A stretch of DNA of 8,637 nucleotides, taken from positions 1-8,637 of IMG/VR virus record IMGVR_UViG_2713896901_000007, one strand, 5' to 3'. A program made the position numbers and the translations under genes. Source of the DNA: a virus. Taxonomy: Duplodnaviria > Heunggongvirae > Uroviricota > Caudoviricetes. Shown here piece after piece: positions 605-8,637 of the stretch; the stretch's first letter is position 1, and each line of letters starts with the position of its first letter. A model generated the notes under the pieces. The model worked only from the letters and a program-made list of their open reading frames with translations, was not told where the DNA came from and searched no databases.

Positions 605-789
605 TGCCTGCATCCTGTTTGCATCAGACGTAAACGGGCCAGCATCGAAACAATGCATATTTTATTTAGCAGTTCCTGTTCGTGTTTTCTTTTATTAATG
701 GCATCTTCAGTAAATATCTGATTGCTGATAGTGACACCAATTTCAAAACAACCTTCAGACGTATTAACGTTTGGTAATAACGTTTCCAT
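601..789 (-). CDS. small hypothetical protein (62 aa), early-left operon, at the position where lambdoid phages carry kil-type genes
   Basis: ATG at 789..787 with GAGGA 7 nt upstream. The track's longer form (601..894) starts at GTG with no Shine-Dalgarno. The stop overlaps the next ORF's start. The kil analogy is positional only. Confidence 0.45.
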   Translation of the reverse strand: METLLPNVNTSEGCFEIGVTISNQIFTEDAINKRKHEQELLNKICIVSMLARLRLMQTGCRQ

Positions 790-1017
790 TATCGCGTCCT
801 CAACAATGAATTTTGTGATGCGGTGCCTGGTGCCTCCAGGTGACGTTAACCAGTTAATAATTAACGTCGGATACAGAGAATCCACCCATAACACTGTTTT
901 TAGCTTTAACTGTTCCGCGTGCGCTTAGCCGCATTCACCACATCACAAAATTCACTTTAAAAAGGGCGGCAGAGCAGTCACGGAGTAAAACTGATACCGC
1001 CAAACGCCACCAGAAAA

Positions 1018-1562: not shown

Positions 1563-2201
1563 TTACCAGTCAATCCAGAGCGGACCGTGTTCAGCGTAAA
1601 TATAACTGTACACATCCAGATTATATTTGTGGTCTGTTAAGAACAGGCCGCAAATACATGCCGAAGCTTCCAGGGCAGCGGCTCTGTTACTGAATAACCA
1701 TGTAGCAACATTCCAGCGTTTTTCTGCATCCCAGTCTTTCTCAAGGCCTGATACCATGAAGAAACCGTTAGTGTTGCCATCAAATAATTCTGTTTCCAGA
1801 TTTTTAAGCAATGCCTGATGGACTCTTGCCAGGTATTCCGCCGGAATTTCGCCACGAATTCTGATGAGATTGTCATAAACAAACATGTTCCCCGCATATG
1901 GCGATTTTTCTTTCTTGTTTTTTAAACCAGTATCATGAGCAAACTGATCAATTTCTTCTTCCGTTGGTTTCGTATTGATGTTTTGCGCTGTCGTTTCTGC
2001 AATTTTATTTGCCACACTCTCTGAGTCGTGTTTATTTACAGACGCACAGAAATACAATCCGGTAAACGCATCGCGCACATTACGAGCCATATTATCAGTG
2101 TCTTTTTTCGTTACCGATTCCAATGCAAGTTCGTTCAGACGATGACGAAGTGTGTGTACTGCAATCTCCTGGATTGAAGTAGGTAAATCTTTAAATTCCA
2201 T
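1563..2201 (-). CDS. uncharacterised protein (212 aa from ATG 2201; 216 aa if started at 2213), second cistron downstream of pL
   Basis: Long clean ORF. The ATG at 2201 has GAGG 6 nt upstream; the alternative ATG at 2213 overlaps the upstream gene's stop by 1 nt (TGATG). I see no Walker, HTH or other recognisable motif by eye. Confidence 0.8.
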   Translation of the reverse strand: MEFKDLPTSIQEIAVHTLRHRLNELALESVTKKDTDNMARNVRDAFTGLYFCASVNKHDSESVANKIAETTAQNINTKPTEEEIDQFAHDTGLKNKKEKSPYAGNMFVYDNLIRIRGEIPAEYLARVHQALLKNLETELFDGNTNGFFMVSGLEKDWDAEKRWNVATWLFSNRAAALEASACICGLFLTDHKYNLDVYSYIYAEHGPLWIDW

Positions 2202-2212
2202 CGTCAACCTCA

Positions 2213-2365
2213 TCAGTCAGAGTTTCTTGCTAACCAGCGATGCGCGCCAGCTTCGGTTTTAAACGTTTTACTTTTGGTATACGTCATCGCGGTGAATGTG
2301 CCGTCCTGGTTGGGAAACACGCCGTACACCAGAGATTCGTTGTTGCCAAGATCGATAGTATCCAT
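2213..2365 (-). CDS. small protein (50 aa), probably YdaF/YdaG-like Rac early-left protein
   Basis: ATG at 2365..2363 with TGAGG 5 nt upstream (MDTIDLGNNESLVYGVFPNQDG...). The track's 76-aa form starts at 2443 with no clear Shine-Dalgarno. Family assignment is from memory of Rac gene order and is unverified. Confidence 0.55.
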   Translation of the reverse strand: MDTIDLGNNESLVYGVFPNQDGTFTAMTYTKSKTFKTEAGAHRWLARNSD

Positions 2366-3578: not shown

Positions 3579-3600
3579 AACATCAAGAGGAAAATGATTC

Positions 3601-4026
3601 ATGAAAATCAAGCATGAACACATCCGCATAGCGATGAATGCCTGGGCGCGTCCTGATGGCGAAAAGGTTCCGGCAGCTGAAATAACCCGGGCTTATTTTG
3701 AGTTGGGTATGACGTTTCCTGAACTGTACGACAACAGCCATCCTGAAGCCCTGGCTCGCAATACCCAGAAAATTTTCCGCTGGGTAGAGAAAGACACTCC
3801 TGATGCGGTTGAAAAAATTCAGGCGTTGTTACCTGCGATCGAAAAGGCAATGCCGCCTCTGCTGGTGGCCCGAATGCGCAGTCACAGTTCAGCCTATTTT
3901 CGGGAGCTGCTGGAGACGCGGGAGCGGCTGGTGAGGGATGCAGATGATTTTATTGCGGTGGCAATTGCTGGTTTCAACCAGATTAATCGCGGTGGCCCGG
4001 CAGGAAATGCCGTGGTGATGCACTAA
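3601..4026 (+). CDS. ydaT: YdaT-family protein (141 aa), at the cII position
   Basis: Immediately follows ydaS (22-nt gap, AAGAGG upstream). Size and position match Rac YdaT. Assigned by synteny and memory, not by search. Confidence 0.7.
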   Translation: MKIKHEHIRIAMNAWARPDGEKVPAAEITRAYFELGMTFPELYDNSHPEALARNTQKIFRWVEKDTPDAVEKIQALLPAIEKAMPPLLVARMRSHSSAYFRELLETRERLVRDADDFIAVAIAGFNQINRGGPAGNAVVMH

Positions 4027-4049
4027 AAGCACGGTGTTCGGGGTTTTTT

Positions 4050-5012
4050 ATGAGCAGCAAGCTTCATGGTCTTGTCTGGGAAGGGTGCGCCTTCACCGGC
4101 ATGATCTTATCCAGGGTGGCAGTGATGGCTCGTCTTGCAGACTACAGCAATGATGAAGGTGTGTCATGGCCTGCAGTAGAGACCATTCGTCGTCAGATTG
4201 GGGCAAAGAGTGAATCAACGGTTAAAGCGGCGATAGCGGAACTGGAAAAGAGCGGCTGGCTGACAAAGGAAGAGCGTAAGGTTGGCGGACGTAACGTAAG
4301 CAATATCTACCGGCTTAATGTGGAAAAACTCGAAGCTGCAGCAGCGGCGGCGCGAGAGGCATATAAACCGAAAAGAAAAATTAGCCCGGCAAAAAATGAC
4401 CCGTTAACGGTTGACCCGTCAAATATTGACCCCTCAACGGTTGACCCGTCAAATTTTGATGGCTCAACCGTTGATAAAAAACGGTCGGTTAGGGGGGCGA
4501 TGATTGACCCCGATCCGTCAGTATTAAAATCTGATCCGTCAGATAAAAGATCTTCTTGTCCGGACGCTTTGCAACCGGACCCGCAGACGGCTGAACAGGA
4601 TTTTTTAACCCGACACCCTGATGCGGTTGTGTTCAGTGCGAAAAAACGCCAGTGGGGAAGTCAGGAAGATTTGGCGTGCGCACAGTGGATCTGGGGACGA
4701 ATCGTGAGTCTTTACGAGCAGGCGGCCAGCGATGATGGCGAGATCACGCGACCGAAAGAACCAAACTGGACCGCGTGGGCCAATGACGTGCGCACAATGC
4801 GGATGCTGGATGGCAGAACTCACAGACAAATTTGCGAAATGTTTGGGCGGGTACAGCGGGATCCATTCTGGGTAAAAAACATCATGAGCCCGTCAAAGCT
4901 CCGCGAAAAATGGGACGAACTGGTCATCCGCCTGGGGCGTTCACCTGTACAGCGTTGTGTGAATCATATTTCTGAACCGGACACCGAAATTCCGCCGGGG
5001 TTCAGGGGGTAA
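4050..5012 (+). CDS. replication initiator, lambda O-like (320 aa), with ori iterons inside its linker
   Basis: N-terminal winged-helix initiator-like segment. Central DPSxx peptide repeats are encoded by 15-bp tandem DNA repeats. The gene directly precedes a DnaC-like gene. Corresponds positionally to Rac ydaU. Confidence 0.75.
   Translation: MSSKLHGLVWEGCAFTGMILSRVAVMARLADYSNDEGVSWPAVETIRRQIGAKSESTVKAAIAELEKSGWLTKEERKVGGRNVSNIYRLNVEKLEAAAAAAREAYKPKRKISPAKNDPLTVDPSNIDPSTVDPSNFDGSTVDKKRSVRGAMIDPDPSVLKSDPSDKRSSCPDALQPDPQTAEQDFLTRHPDAVVFSAKKRQWGSQEDLACAQWIWGRIVSLYEQAASDDGEITRPKEPNWTAWANDVRTMRMLDGRTHRQICEMFGRVQRDPFWVKNIMSPSKLREKWDELVIRLGRSPVQRCVNHISEPDTEIPPGFRG
4396..4470. repeat. five tandem ~15-bp iterons (consensus TTGACCCGTCAANNN), putative replication origin
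   Basis: Direct repeats at about 4396, 4411, 4426, 4441 and 4456, each with internal TTGAC..GTCAA dyad symmetry. Followed by duplicated GATCCGTCAG motifs at 4511..4545. Confidence 0.6.
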
Positions 5013-5018
5013 CGAACC

Positions 5019-5195
5019 ATGAAAAATATTGCGACAGGCGGCGTTCTGGAACGTATCCGCAGACTGACCCCGCCACATGTAACCGCCCCATTCAGAACGG
5101 TAGCGGAGTGGCGCGAGTGGCAACTTGCTGAAGGCCAGAAGCGTAGCGAGGAGATCAACCGCCTGAATCGCCAGTTGCGGGTGGAAAAATTATGA
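5019..5195 (+). CDS. DnaC/IstB-like helicase loader, N-terminal segment (58 aa), separated from the ATPase domain by a frame break
   Basis: ATG 5019 with AGGGGG Shine-Dalgarno, 6 nt after the O-like stop. Ends at TGA 5193..5195 just after an A5 run (5185..5189). Not in the ORF track, presumably below its length cut-off. My own translation. Confidence 0.5.
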   Translation: MKNIATGGVLERIRRLTPPHVTAPFRTVAEWREWQLAEGQKRSEEINRLNRQLRVEKL

Positions 5196-5764
5196 ATCGC
5201 TCAGGCATCCAGCCGTTGCACCGTAAATGCTCGTTTGCGAATTACCATGTACAGAACGATGGCCAGCGATACGCGTTAAGTCAGGCGAAATCCATCGCTG
5301 ATGAACTGATGACCGGATGCACAAATTTCGCGTTCAGCGGAAAACCTGGTACTGGAAAAAACCATCTGGCGGCGGCTATCGGGAATCGCCTGCTGAAAGA
5401 CGGCCAGACAGTGATAGTGGTTACTGTGGCTGATGTTATGAGTGCCCTGCACGCCAGCTATGACGACGGGCAGTCAGGTGAAAAATTTTTGCGGGAATTG
5501 TGCGAAGTGGATCTGCTGGTTCTTGATGAAATTGGCATTCAGCGTGAGACGAAAAACGAGCAGGTGGTACTGCATCAGATTGTTGATCGCCGGACAGCAT
5601 CGATGCGCAGTATGGGGATGCTGACAAACCTGAACTATGAGGCCATGAAAACGTTGCTCGGTGAGAGGGTTATGGATCGCATGACCATGAACGGCGGGCG
5701 ATGGGTTAATTTTAACTGGGAAAGCTGGCGACCGAATGTCGTCCAGCCAGGAATCACGAAGTGA
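5192..5764 (+). CDS. DnaC-like AAA+ helicase loader, ATPase domain (190 aa)
   Basis: Walker [19 protein letters not shown] and Walker [10 protein letters not shown], which I recall as close to E. coli DnaC. The ATG overlaps the upstream stop (ATGA). Corresponds positionally to Rac ydaV. Confidence 0.8.
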
Positions 5765-5786
5765 TTTTTACCGGGAGGAAATTTTA

Positions 5787-6548
5787 ATGGAGACTGTTTT
5801 TGACGCACTGAAAGCGATGGGAAAGGCCACGTCCATAGAACTTGCTGCGCGACTTGATGTCAGTCGTGAAGAAGTGCTTAACGAACTATGGGAACTGAAA
5901 AAGGCTGGTTTTGTTGATAAAAGCGCGTACACCTGGCGTGTGGCTGATAACAACGTTCAGCAGGAACAACCAGCGCAGGCAGAACTGCCGGAAGAAACCA
6001 CCACAGCAACAGTAGCGAAAATCTCAGAGTGCGATTTAACCGCGACGATTGAACAACGCGGACCACAAACGGCGGATGAACTGGCTACGTTGTTCGGTAC
6101 CACATCACGCAAAGTAGCGTCAACGCTGGCAATGGCAATCAGCAAAGGGCGTCTGATTCGTGTAAATCAGAACGGTAAATTTCGTTACTGCATGCCGGAC
6201 GATAATTTACCAGCTGAGCCGAAAGCCGCATTGGTAACGGGAAATGATGGTAAAGCCTTTCCTCAGCCAGCAGGTGTTGCGTTACCAGCACAGGAAGCTG
6301 TAACACAGGAAGAAATTAAAACAGAAACTGTGGCGGACATTGTGCAGTCGCTGCCATCGTTCACCGAAACGCGGGCGGATGACCTGATTTTACCATCTCT
6401 GCACCTGGCAAACCGCGAACTGCGTCGGGCGAAAAATCATGTCCAGAAGTGGGAGCGTGTCTGCGCCGCACTGCGGGAGCTGAATAAACACCGGGATATT
6501 GTCCGACAGATTGTCGATTCCTCCAGTCGCGTTGTGTTGGAAAAGTGA
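5787..6548 (+). CDS. hypothetical protein with two predicted winged-helix domains and a C-terminal helical tail (253 aa)
   Basis: ATG 5787 with GGGAGGA 7 nt upstream. The track start at 5736 lacks a Shine-Dalgarno and overlaps the loader gene. The two wH-like segments are residues about 1-50 and about 110-150. Possibly ydaW-like. Confidence 0.7.
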
Positions 6549-6555
6549 GGCGCTT

Positions 6556-6966
6556 ATGAGAAACGTTTTTACACCTGAATATCGGGAGCAACTGAAGGCG
6601 CGTATTGTGGAACTGGTGCGCAGAGATGGGCGGAAAACACGTAAGCAACTGGAGGATGAAACCGGAGCAACGAGACACCTGATAGAAGTTCTGGCGAAAG
6701 AGCTGGTAGTTAGTGGCACGCTATATGGTTCAGGCCATGGAATATTTCCTTCAGAACAGGCTCGTAAGGACTGGATAAAAGCCTGCAAAAAAATGTCGAG
6801 AGCGGCAGTGAAAAAGAAGAGCGACTCTGGCCTGATTTATTCATTGCCAGATGGCGAAATACGTCGTTACAACAGGCGTCATAATATAATTTGTAATGAG
6901 AGCCGTAACAGTGAAGTGATGCAGCGAGTTTTGATATTTTACACAGGAGTAATGATGGTTCAGTGA
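6556..6966 (+). CDS. hypothetical protein (136 aa), C-terminus encoded by AT-rich DNA and possibly truncated or fused at a junction
   Basis: ATG 6556 with GTGAGG 5 nt upstream, 7 nt after the previous stop. Composition changes sharply at about 6840 inside the ORF. Confidence 0.55.
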   Translation: MRNVFTPEYREQLKARIVELVRRDGRKTRKQLEDETGATRHLIEVLAKELVVSGTLYGSGHGIFPSEQARKDWIKACKKMSRAAVKKKSDSGLIYSLPDGEIRRYNRRHNIICNESRNSEVMQRVLIFYTGVMMVQ

Positions 6967-7321
6967 AAACAATATGAAATCTTTATCTTCTGGTCTTTCA
7001 ACAGATGGGAAAAGTGTAGATATATGAAAATTGTATAGCAATAATTCGCAGCATGGATGCTGTTTGTATGTTGATAAAGTGCTCCCAGTATGCGAGTGTA
7101 AGAGTTGAACCAGCTCCAACTAAGAAACTGGGGGGGATTATTCAGAATGTAGCTAAGTGAATGTTGTTATGAGTATCTGAAAAATTTTTAATGGGTCTAA
7201 GAACACAGCAATGCACAAATGAGGAGTTATCTTTTATTGTGCTTATTAATATGCTCAATGACCCATTGAGATTGATGTTAGTTATGTTAGCCAGAGTGAT
7301 ATAGTGATTATATCTCTGTTG

Positions 7322-8095
7322 TTATATGCTGAAATGAATAATACTATTCCAGAGTGCAGCAGCGAAAGTCTCCTGATGATTGAGTCCTGGGAATTGTACG
7401 ATAGAAAAATTACTGTATTTTTCTGTTAAAATATTTCTCAAAACAGATTCTGCTTTAATGGCTTCAGGATATAAAGATGCGGAGTAATCAAGGCTAAGAT
7501 CTCCGTTAAGTAAGCATATGCTTTTAGTATGCTTTGATTCTGGCATATCATTTTTTATGATCTTGATGATTCTTTCATCCTGCCATAGAAGTGATGGTGC
7601 TGAGATATAATAATAGCTAAAACATGAATTGTGTTTTAAACAATCAAGAACAAAAATGGCACCTAGTGAGTGTCCCCATATACCGAGTTTGGAAGAGGTC
7701 GGAACAACGGTGCTGACCCAGGGCATGATCTGAGTTAGCAATAACTCTCGGAAAGTCTGACTTCCTCCACCAGTGAAGTAGATCCATGCTGGTTTGGAGT
7801 TATCAATAATAGCATTTTCACCACTAGGAGTGTAATCGTAAGCACGGCGGTGAATGTTAAGGTTATCCCAGGATTCATAACTAAGTGTAACTAACACTGG
7901 TGGATTGGGTAGTGCATCAATAACAGGCAGAATATCAGAAATGTAATTGTTGGCACTATTCCCATCAAGTATATAAAGAGTTGCATTATTTTTTTCAATG
8001 TTTTTTGGAGTAAAAATACATATTTTATATTTGGTGTCATGGTTAATTGAGTTAAATATGCGTGTTTGACAATGAATGTCCATATGTTTAGTCAT
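7322..8095 (-). CDS. alpha/beta-hydrolase, esterase-type (257 aa), in a low-GC segment
   Basis: GHSLGA nucleophile elbow (GxSxG), upstream LDGN motif and a C-terminal GLNH segment, resembling the Fes/IroE putative-esterase fold as I remember it. ATG 8095 with GGGGAGAA upstream. No N-terminal signal peptide. Confidence 0.75.
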   Translation of the reverse strand: MTKHMDIHCQTRIFNSINHDTKYKICIFTPKNIEKNNATLYILDGNSANNYISDILPVIDALPNPPVLVTLSYESWDNLNIHRRAYDYTPSGENAIIDNSKPAWIYFTGGGSQTFRELLLTQIMPWVSTVVPTSSKLGIWGHSLGAIFVLDCLKHNSCFSYYYISAPSLLWQDERIIKIIKNDMPESKHTKSICLLNGDLSLDYSASLYPEAIKAESVLRNILTEKYSNFSIVQFPGLNHQETFAAALWNSIIHFSI

Positions 8096-8460
8096 GCGTT
8101 CTCCCCATGAGCATTAAAGGATGCTTAAGATATGCTATGTCACTGATGAAAAATTTGTTGTGTGTGTTTAGATATTTTATCTACCTCCATTATGATTTAA
8201 GACTGATATATGTTATCAGCAAAGGTACATCGTTATTATTTTACCTGTCAATACATTTGATATTGATTATCGTTTACATCGCTTGCTTAGGAAATTGAAG
8301 GCAGATAACTATCATGTCAATGAACTAACCCACAGTCTAACGTACTTCTTTCCCCAATCACCAACAACCAAATTCCTGTTATCATCACCGGGATTTTGGC
8401 GCAACTTCATGGTGCAGAGGTAAATAGCATCAAGCAAAATCTCTTTTTCCGTTGTTGTCC

Positions 8461-8637
8461 TTATGGGACGTCTGTCTTTCTGACCGATTTCATATTGGCG
8501 AGGTAATGGGAAGTTAAGTAGAATGGCTGCGGGTGCTTGAGGCTATCTGTCTCAGGCATGAACACCAAAGGCAGATAGAGAAAAGCCCCAGTTAACATTA
8601 CGCGTCCTGCAAGACGCTTAACATTAATCTGAGGCTC
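8461..8637 (-). CDS. possible 3' end of a gene entering from the right window edge (58 codons, no start in window)
   Basis: My manual translation of the minus frame is open from 8637 to a TAA at 8463..8461 (...LAGRVMLTGAFLYLPLVFMPETDSLKHPQPFYLTSHYLANMKSVRKTDVP). An open frame of this length could be chance. Confidence 0.2.
   Translation of the reverse strand, partial: EPQINVKRLAGRVMLTGAFLYLPLVFMPETDSLKHPQPFYLTSHYLANMKSVRKTDVP

Follow-up and report, generated by a model that had tools for sequence, protein, structure and literature searches.

A leaderless IroE-family esterase gene as probable exchangeable cargo in a Rac/Qin/Sp4-type prophage of Escherichia albertii

What is an esterase gene doing between the replication genes and the hok/sok locus of a lambdoid prophage? 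The question is raised by the viral record IMGVR_UViG_2713896901_000007, all 8,637 nt of which (hereafter the window) belong to the immunity and replication region of an Escherichia albertii prophage (lambdoid, Rac/Qin/Sp4 type), and in which an AT-rich segment encodes, on the minus strand, an α/β hydrolase of 257 amino acids (aa). The initial annotation had taken this segment to be either horizontally acquired cargo or the margin of another island next to a truncated prophage. Comparison with related prophages and with proteins of known structure indicates that the esterase gene is very probably selected, family-typical and exchangeable cargo in an intact prophage. A fuller explanation, to which a probability of about 0.6 is assigned, is that the segment is a cassette of the ‘moron’ type whose product would be an intracellular, IroE/BesA-like serine esterase cleaving a catecholate trilactone siderophore. 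The elements that delimit the locus are as follows (L numbers are the handles of the loci compared).

6835..8385, no strand: low-GC block (guanine-plus-cytosine (GC) content 0.355; 0.516 to the left and 0.464 to the right; likelihood segmentation and sliding windows)
6927..8475, no strand: predicted exchangeable cargo module, ~1.55 kb (homology breakpoints against L003 and L004)
7322..8095, minus strand: predicted leaderless serine esterase of the IroE/PfeE/BesA family, 257 aa (PF00756, phrog_8493, IroE 2gzr, AlphaFold2 and Foldseek, and the ratio of nonsynonymous to synonymous substitution rates (dN/dS))
6556..6966, plus strand: DUF977/Ren-like gene, with which the backbone ends on the left side of the slot (PF06163, E = 4e-25; phrog_142, ‘Ren-like exclusion protein’)
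8531..8637, plus strand: 5′ part of the sok/hok locus, with which the backbone resumes on the right side of the slot (Rfam RF01794, 67.9 bits; 3′ end cut off by the contig end; hokD comes next in all homologous loci)

The AT-rich segment and its position in the prophage

The fall in GC content to about one-third, which had been estimated by eye across 6840–8330, is real. A GC scan gave 0.355 for these positions against 0.515 over 3600–6839 (z = 10.3), and the block is essentially the minimum of the window, where the lowest-GC stretch of 1491 bp (0.353) starts at 6833. Two-breakpoint likelihood segmentation placed the change points at 6835 and 8385, near the limits first proposed, with a drop from 0.516 to 0.355 at the first of these. 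At third codon positions the GC content (GC3) is 0.306 in the esterase gene (overall GC 0.360), against 0.47–0.59 in the neighbouring replication genes from the O-like gene to DUF1627, and it is 0.43 in the DUF977 gene that adjoins the segment. The AT-rich segment is compositionally foreign relative to the flanking early-right operon.

The genes of the window are arranged in the order DicF RNA, RacR-like repressor, YdaS/Cro, YdaT, O-like HTH_36 protein, DnaC/IstB-like ATPase, DUF1627, DUF977, esterase and sok/hok, and the sequence is 100% identical to the entire 8637-bp contig BBVL01000051.1 of the E. albertii draft assembly GCA_001514705.1 (L016). Both ends of the window fall within the lambdoid prophage, and the assembly probably broke there at sequence common to several prophages. 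Longer contigs that are 99.3–99.8% identical to the window (the complete genomes L012 and L013, together with L014 and L015) carry the prophage on in both directions, with hok, DUF968, Q, holin, lysozyme, Rz, pRha and terminase on one side and dicB, exonuclease and integrase on the other. The reading of the low-GC block as the edge of a separate genomic island next to a truncated prophage, which could draw on the fact that the window stops 300 bp past the block, is scarcely credible and is best regarded as a contig-end artefact, because the prophage continues in all four of these contigs, as far as the terminase, and the window itself is a complete draft contig that is already back in the prophage backbone at the sok/hok locus (8476–8637).

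The boundaries of the slot were derived from prophages that hold other cargo. L003 and L004 match the window up to 6926–6929 and again from 8476–8494, and the module between these breakpoints starts within the DUF977 gene, to which it contributes the final 40 nt (13 codons), and takes in the esterase gene with the non-coding sequence on either side of it. The E. coli collection provided no empty-slot reference, as a search of the E. coli genomes for 6600–6966 joined to 8453–8637 gave no record in which the two halves were adjacent. In E. coli prophages the slot is also occupied by the following.

L003:5608-8406: 932-aa SEC-C protein with a weak match to LmuA (Lamassu)
L004:5532-6251: DUF551 protein
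L009:4533-5165: 210-aa hypothetical protein
L010:5441-6935: Ser/Thr kinase and PP2C phosphatase pair

The slot between DUF977 and hokD looks like a hotspot for accessory or defence genes, and it is because sister prophages hold other cargo there that the esterase segment is regarded as a moron in a variable slot. When prophages that carry the esterase are compared with the window, identity is only ~70% in the body of the DUF977 gene but 81–99% across the module, from which it follows that recombination transfers the module from one backbone to another.

The esterase gene is present in 471 of 5426 complete E. coli genomes (~9%), in almost all of them as a single copy, and ~460 of the 471 carriers match at least 80% of a query spanning the DUF977 gene to sok. 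Carriers include O157:H7 Sakai, Shiga toxin-producing E. coli (STEC) of serogroups O26, O145 and O103, and E. albertii. In every locus examined, including prophage Sp4 of Sakai, the gene lies between DUF977 and hokD, and the E. coli alleles have a GC content of 0.344–0.348. The initial annotation had held that homologous prophages with the same gene at this position and of similar composition would speak against cargo. That is the situation found, but it does not refute the status of the segment as cargo, as the slot is filled by different genes in sister prophages that have the backbone in common. Of the two original interpretations, compositionally foreign cargo is thus retained, as conserved cargo at a fixed position, and the island edge is discarded. 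Among isolated phages (INPHARED), a DNA search matched only the DUF977 or sok flanks and no esterase gene, and a protein search matched only true iroE at ~28% identity, so that no catalogued phage was found to carry the gene.

A perfect 12-nt inverted repeat, CAATATGAAATC / GATTTCATATTG (6970–6981 and 8486–8497), closely brackets the module. It was rejected as a signature of mobility because its left arm has three mismatches in the Sp4 allele and its right arm is part of the hok/sok backbone, and it is probably due to chance. The 127 nt between the upstream flank of the esterase gene and hok/sok (8349–8475) are replaced in L005 by an unrelated stretch of ~230 nt, and 84 nt (window ~8357–8440, plus strand) are annotated in RefSeq as a partial pseudogene in E. 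coli; the stretch looks like the remnant of an earlier slot cargo.

Family, fold and active site of the esterase

The low-GC block holds one long open reading frame (ORF), at 7322–8095 on the minus strand, and its 257-aa product contains the two motifs originally recognised, GHSLGA at residues 141–146 and LDGN at residues 43–46. Extension of the ORF upstream is impossible, as it begins at the first start codon past a stop. The identical protein in RefSeq is entered as ‘alpha/beta hydrolase [Escherichia albertii]’, and ‘alpha/beta hydrolase’ is the only name that it bears there. Two ORFs in the flanks of the gene, 6841–7119 (minus strand) and 8107–8298 (plus strand), gave no PHROG match and neither was treated as a gene; the smaller of them, 8107–8298, is frameshifted in L005.

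Membership of the esterase-type α/β hydrolases of the Fes/IroE superfamily, as first proposed, is borne out by profile, sequence and structural comparisons. The protein matches PF00756 in Pfam (25.9 bits, cut-off 22) and, over its full length, phrog_8493, a PHROGs family of unknown function. Among solved structures searched with phmmer the best match is IroE (2gzr; E = 4.9e-25, residues 8–253), followed by PfeE (2.3e-11), BES (3.4e-11), an IroE-like hydrolase and the fungal EstA/EstB, and all sequence matches at E<0.1 are siderophore esterases. The AlphaFold2 model, based on an alignment of 69 sequences, has a mean predicted local distance difference test score (pLDDT) of 87.4 and a predicted template-modelling score (pTM) of 0.89, and confidence is good from residue 9 onwards. 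Siderophore esterases fill the first 30 places of a Foldseek search of the PDB with this model, at template-modelling (TM) scores of 0.71–0.85, and S-formylglutathione hydrolases and Fes come next at distinctly lower scores. BFVD yielded no comparable viral structure for the model.

The residues invariant in the 69-sequence family alignment are D44, G45, N46, R84, D87, Y88, G141-H142-S143, G145 and H240. The codons for the residues equivalent to those of the IroE active site are listed below.

7667..7669, minus strand: Ser143, predicted nucleophile in GHSLGA, equivalent to IroE Ser189 (invariant in the 69 family members)
7376..7378, minus strand: His240, equivalent to IroE His287 (invariant in the 69 family members)
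7964..7966, minus strand: Asp44 in LDGN, equivalent to IroE Asp90 (invariant in the family alignment)
7844..7846, minus strand: Arg84 in RAYDYTP, equivalent to IroE Arg130 (invariant in the family alignment)

Larsen et al. (2006) are reported to have assigned Asp90 and Arg130 of IroE a role in its mechanism. The conserved catalytic triad that had been suggested as a check on the protein is the wrong test for this family, because IroE uses a Ser189–His287 dyad and not a triad (PMC10515146); the serine and the histidine are both kept in the prophage esterase.

In an exhaustive HMMER search of 1.84 billion representative proteins, identity exceeded 40% only for fragments or variants of this one Escherichia protein. 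Full-length relatives came next at 31–33% identity and are megaplasmid hydrolases of Pantoea and Duffyella, and no relative was found in the GTDB representative genomes. By these comparisons and by its predicted fold, the esterase forms an isolated, Escherichia-only clade in the IroE/PfeE/BesA siderophore-esterase fold family. It is an uncharacterised member of a known enzyme family, borne by a known kind of genetic element.

All aligned relatives, including true IroE and the proteins from Pantoea, Alcaligenes and Pseudomonas, are longer by 45–55 residues at the N terminus, where they have a hydrophobic signal or anchor, and the alignment of the esterase begins at about residue 46–55 of every one of them. 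The maximum 15-residue Kyte-Doolittle mean over the first 60 residues of the esterase is 0.29, against 1.2–2.6 in the leader-bearing relatives, in agreement with the absence of a signal peptide noted at the outset. Because it is leaderless the protein is presumably cytoplasmic, most simply like Fes or the Bacillus BesA.

IroE, the salmochelin/enterobactin trilactone hydrolase of the iroA locus (PDB 2GZR/2GZS), superposes on the esterase model with Foldseek TM scores of 0.78–0.82. The Ser-His dyad and the equivalents of Asp90 and Arg130 are kept, and both proteins are single-domain and without the N-terminal domain of the Fes type. The two are only 26–28% identical, however, and the gene for IroE is located in iroBCDEN whereas that for the esterase is in a prophage slot. 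IroE is also, like PfeE and Cee, a periplasmic enzyme, with an N-terminal hydrophobic anchor or signal of which the prophage esterase has none (PMC11852561). PfeE of Pseudomonas aeruginosa (PDB 6GI0) is the top Foldseek match (E = 1.8e-18; sequence E = 2.3e-11). PfeE and Campylobacter Cee, both ferric-enterobactin esterases, have the fold, the GHSxG motif and the catalytic histidine in common with the prophage protein, but they are 20–23% identical to it, are periplasmic and are linked to a TonB-dependent receptor gene (PMC8001512, PMC11852561). Three features define the periplasmic enzymes IroE, PfeE and Cee, namely an export leader, a gene linked to a siderophore locus and recognition by NCBI naming models, and the prophage esterase has none of them.

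The cytoplasmic enterobactin/salmochelin esterases Fes and IroD have PF00756 in common with the prophage esterase, and the reaction proposed for it is analogous to theirs (PMC8001512). Fes is nevertheless at Foldseek rank 34 or lower, with a target-normalised TM score (TMt) of 0.46 (~46% of the Fes length aligned), and its architecture (PMC10515146) is not matched by the single-domain protein of 257 aa. BesA (BES), the ferri-bacillibactin esterase of Bacillus (PDB 2QM0), belongs to the same fold family (E = 3.4e-11, Foldseek rank 9) but is ~20% identical, comes from a Gram-positive host and is part of a siderophore regulon and not of a prophage. As BesA acts inside the cell, it would be the closest precedent for the workings of a leaderless family member.

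The same gene in the same slot is known from prophage Sp4 of E. coli O157:H7 Sakai as ECs1077 (WP_000160654.1, ‘alpha/beta hydrolase’; phrog_8493), where it is annotated ‘hypothetical protein’. It encodes 257 aa at a GC content of 0.344 and is 92% identical to the window esterase at the amino acid level and 92.5–92.8% identical at the nucleotide level. It differs in being another allele, from another species, with a flanking DUF977 gene that is only ~70% identical. In the literature searched there was no paper naming ECs1077 or WP_000160654 and no functional study of the gene, and searches combining prophage with IroE or siderophore esterase turned up only unrelated genome surveys.

Selection, expression and proposed function of the cassette

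Three alleles of the esterase gene, each of 257 aa, gave a dN/dS of 0.16–0.24 at a dS of 0.14–0.33, and the length of 257 aa is constant in all full-length alleles. These values show that the gene is maintained by purifying selection. The gene is antisense to the early-right operon and has private sequence on both sides, 355 nt downstream and 380 nt upstream, in which the candidate expression signals are as follows.

8101..8106, minus strand: Shine-Dalgarno sequence GGGGAG, 5 nt before the ATG of the esterase gene (read from the sequence; kept in L001 and L005)
8189..8216, minus strand: weak candidate sigma-70 promoter, ATAACA, 16 nt, CATAAT (9/12 match; both hexamers kept in three alleles)
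8259..8277, no strand: candidate Fur-box-like site, the best of the window (15/19 to GATAATGATAATCATTATC), 164–182 nt upstream of the ATG; a lead only

A Fur-like score of at least 15 was reached in 10 of 300 shuffles of the segment (3%), and the site at 8259–8277 is only partly kept in L001 and L005. The upstream flank of the esterase gene is 98.4–98.8% identical to that of the Sp4 allele, for which the coding sequence is 92.5% identical, while in the comparison with L005 the flank is 88.5% and the coding sequence 95.0% identical. Regulatory constraint on the 5′ flank was therefore rejected, since the flank is less conserved than the coding sequence in the latter comparison, and a recombination breakpoint near the start codon would better account for the conserved 5′ flank. 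The 3′ flank (6967–7330, minus strand) folds more stably than shuffled sequences (minimum free energy −71.3 kcal/mol, z = −3.3) and contains a palindromic hairpin at 7254–7270, but no U-tract terminator was found.

Loss of the leader that all Gram-negative relatives have, and a frameshifted DnaC-like replication gene in the prophage of the same strain, could be taken to mean that the ORF is a decaying, non-functional remnant of a periplasmic esterase minus its signal peptide. This is very unlikely in view of the low dN/dS across alleles, their constant length and invariant catalytic residues, the strong Shine-Dalgarno sequence and a model that is confident almost from the start of the chain (residue 9).

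The explanation that is preferred here is that the AT-rich, reverse-oriented, single-gene cassette of ~1.55 kb (6927–8475) is a prophage moron, which sits in a recombination-prone slot between the last gene of the replication module (DUF977/Ren-like) and the hok/sok-nin region. Its product would be a functional, leaderless and presumably cytoplasmic serine esterase of the IroE/PfeE/BesA family, with catalysis through Ser143 and His240 and with the family-invariant Asp44 and Arg84. We infer expression in the lysogen, most likely from the gene's own promoter. Inside the cell the enzyme would then hydrolyse, much like Fes or BesA, the ester linkages of a trilactone siderophore of the catecholate type, either enterobactin or linear fragments of it, and the outcome would be an altered handling of siderophore-bound iron by the lysogen, from which the host may benefit. 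Taken separately, a siderophore as the substrate, which is predicted from homology and from the modelled fold, is a tentative assignment at somewhat under even odds.

Several observations weigh against this explanation. The PF00756 score is barely over the cut-off, no NCBIfam family matched the esterase at E≤1 (a search that covers the naming model for IroE only if this is in the library), and the protein is only 27–33% identical to any characterised or named relative. Glu243 of IroE, in an MEG motif that is also present in the closest relatives of IroE, corresponds to Asn197 in the esterase, with Asp199 two residues on; this substitution counts against a siderophore esterase, although IroE itself is described as a dyad enzyme. 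The megaplasmid relatives from Pantoea and Duffyella are encoded as stand-alone genes, a context that gives no information on substrate, and no siderophore gene is linked to the prophage esterase, which has DUF977 on one side and hok/sok on the other in all loci examined. E. coli, moreover, already has the cytoplasmic Fes, which makes a benefit to the host less evident. With respect to expression, promoter-like sites around the gene are not above the number in shuffles (11 against 8.1 ± 2.8), no minus-strand terminator was found by a scan of the esterase region, and the Fur-like site is borderline and badly positioned, as the candidate -35 hexamer lies ~43 nt downstream of it.

Some of the other occupants of the slot are defence-like (the SEC-C protein with its weak LmuA match and the Ser/Thr kinase with PP2C phosphatase), the left neighbour belongs to the ‘Ren-like exclusion protein’ PHROG, and the gene represents an orphan clade limited to Escherichia prophages and without linkage to iron genes. 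All of this would suit a real esterase with a non-siderophore substrate, in a cassette for anti-phage defence, superinfection exclusion or counter-defence. Such a role, the main rival to the preferred explanation, is considered rather unlikely, since no defence-protein model of PADLOC-DB 2.0 matched the esterase at E≤1, the family-invariant D44 and R84 are kept, and siderophore esterases account for the 30 best structural matches and for every solved-structure sequence match at E<0.1. An effector of the type III secretion system of attaching-effacing pathogens is extremely unlikely, even though the listed carriers are mostly from lineages positive for the locus of enterocyte effacement (LEE), namely O157, O26, O145, O103 and E. 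albertii, and many non-LEE effector genes resemble this one in their low GC content and their location in prophages. The gene is also found in pig and clinical isolates that are not STEC, it lies outside the usual location of effector genes near the tail-fibre end of prophages, and the lineage pattern may only mirror where Sp4-like prophages occur, together with an excess of STEC in the set of complete genomes.

A more speculative version of the siderophore explanation, and one that is decidedly unlikely, is that a temperate-phage lineage of attaching-effacing Escherichia captured a siderophore esterase, stripped it of its leader and uses it to manipulate the catecholate-siderophore pool of the host from within. 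Such manipulation might consist in the destruction of enterobactin or of siderophore-linked toxins, e.g. catechol microcins, or it might shift the Fur-controlled expression of TonB-dependent receptors that are used by other phages and by colicins.

Other features of the prophage and biological meaning

Elsewhere in the window, two features were located in the dicB region, which also gave a sub-threshold match to STnc100 (36.4 bits against a gathering score of 47).

964-1015, minus strand: DicF antisense small RNA (Rfam, 76.4 bits), upstream of the dicB ORF
757-966, minus strand: dicB ORF, downstream of DicF

The DnaC/IstB-like gene (ydaV-type, 5019–5764, plus strand) has a 1-nt deletion near 5185 that leaves ORFs of 58 aa and 190 aa, against 248 aa in relatives. 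CP117628.1 (L012) aligns gaplessly over this gene and thus has the same lesion, while the gene is intact in L013–L015; the prophage of the sublineage comprising the window and L012 may be replication-defective. Within the O-like gene (4050–5012), positions 4385–4474 (plus strand) contain five tandem 15-nt units (Tandem Repeats Finder period 15/30) encoding DPSxxDPS, in which a 30-nt indel (4415–4444) distinguishes strains. These repeats resemble the iterons of a replication origin that lies within an initiator gene, of which lambda O is an example. An ORF of 216 aa (1563–2213, minus strand; GC 0.418), located in the leftward region between the repressor gene and dicF, belongs to phrog_2151, of unknown function, and gave no Pfam or PADLOC match. 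A counterpart of 212 aa is present in every E. albertii locus and in the E. coli locus L002, and the ORF may be a further accessory gene.

As a genome feature the esterase cassette is ordinary, a moron in a mosaic lambdoid prophage. The locus documents a well-delimited cargo slot, from the DUF977/ren-like gene to hok/sok, in prophages of the Rac/Qin/Sp4 type, and this slot is a possible source of further accessory or defence genes. Should manipulation of the host siderophore pool prove true, an enzyme of iron metabolism would have become a prophage-encoded factor for competition or exclusion. The esterase gene is widely distributed among STEC and in E. albertii. If its product is an intracellular enterobactin esterase, these pathogens would have gained from a prophage an additional means of acquiring iron.

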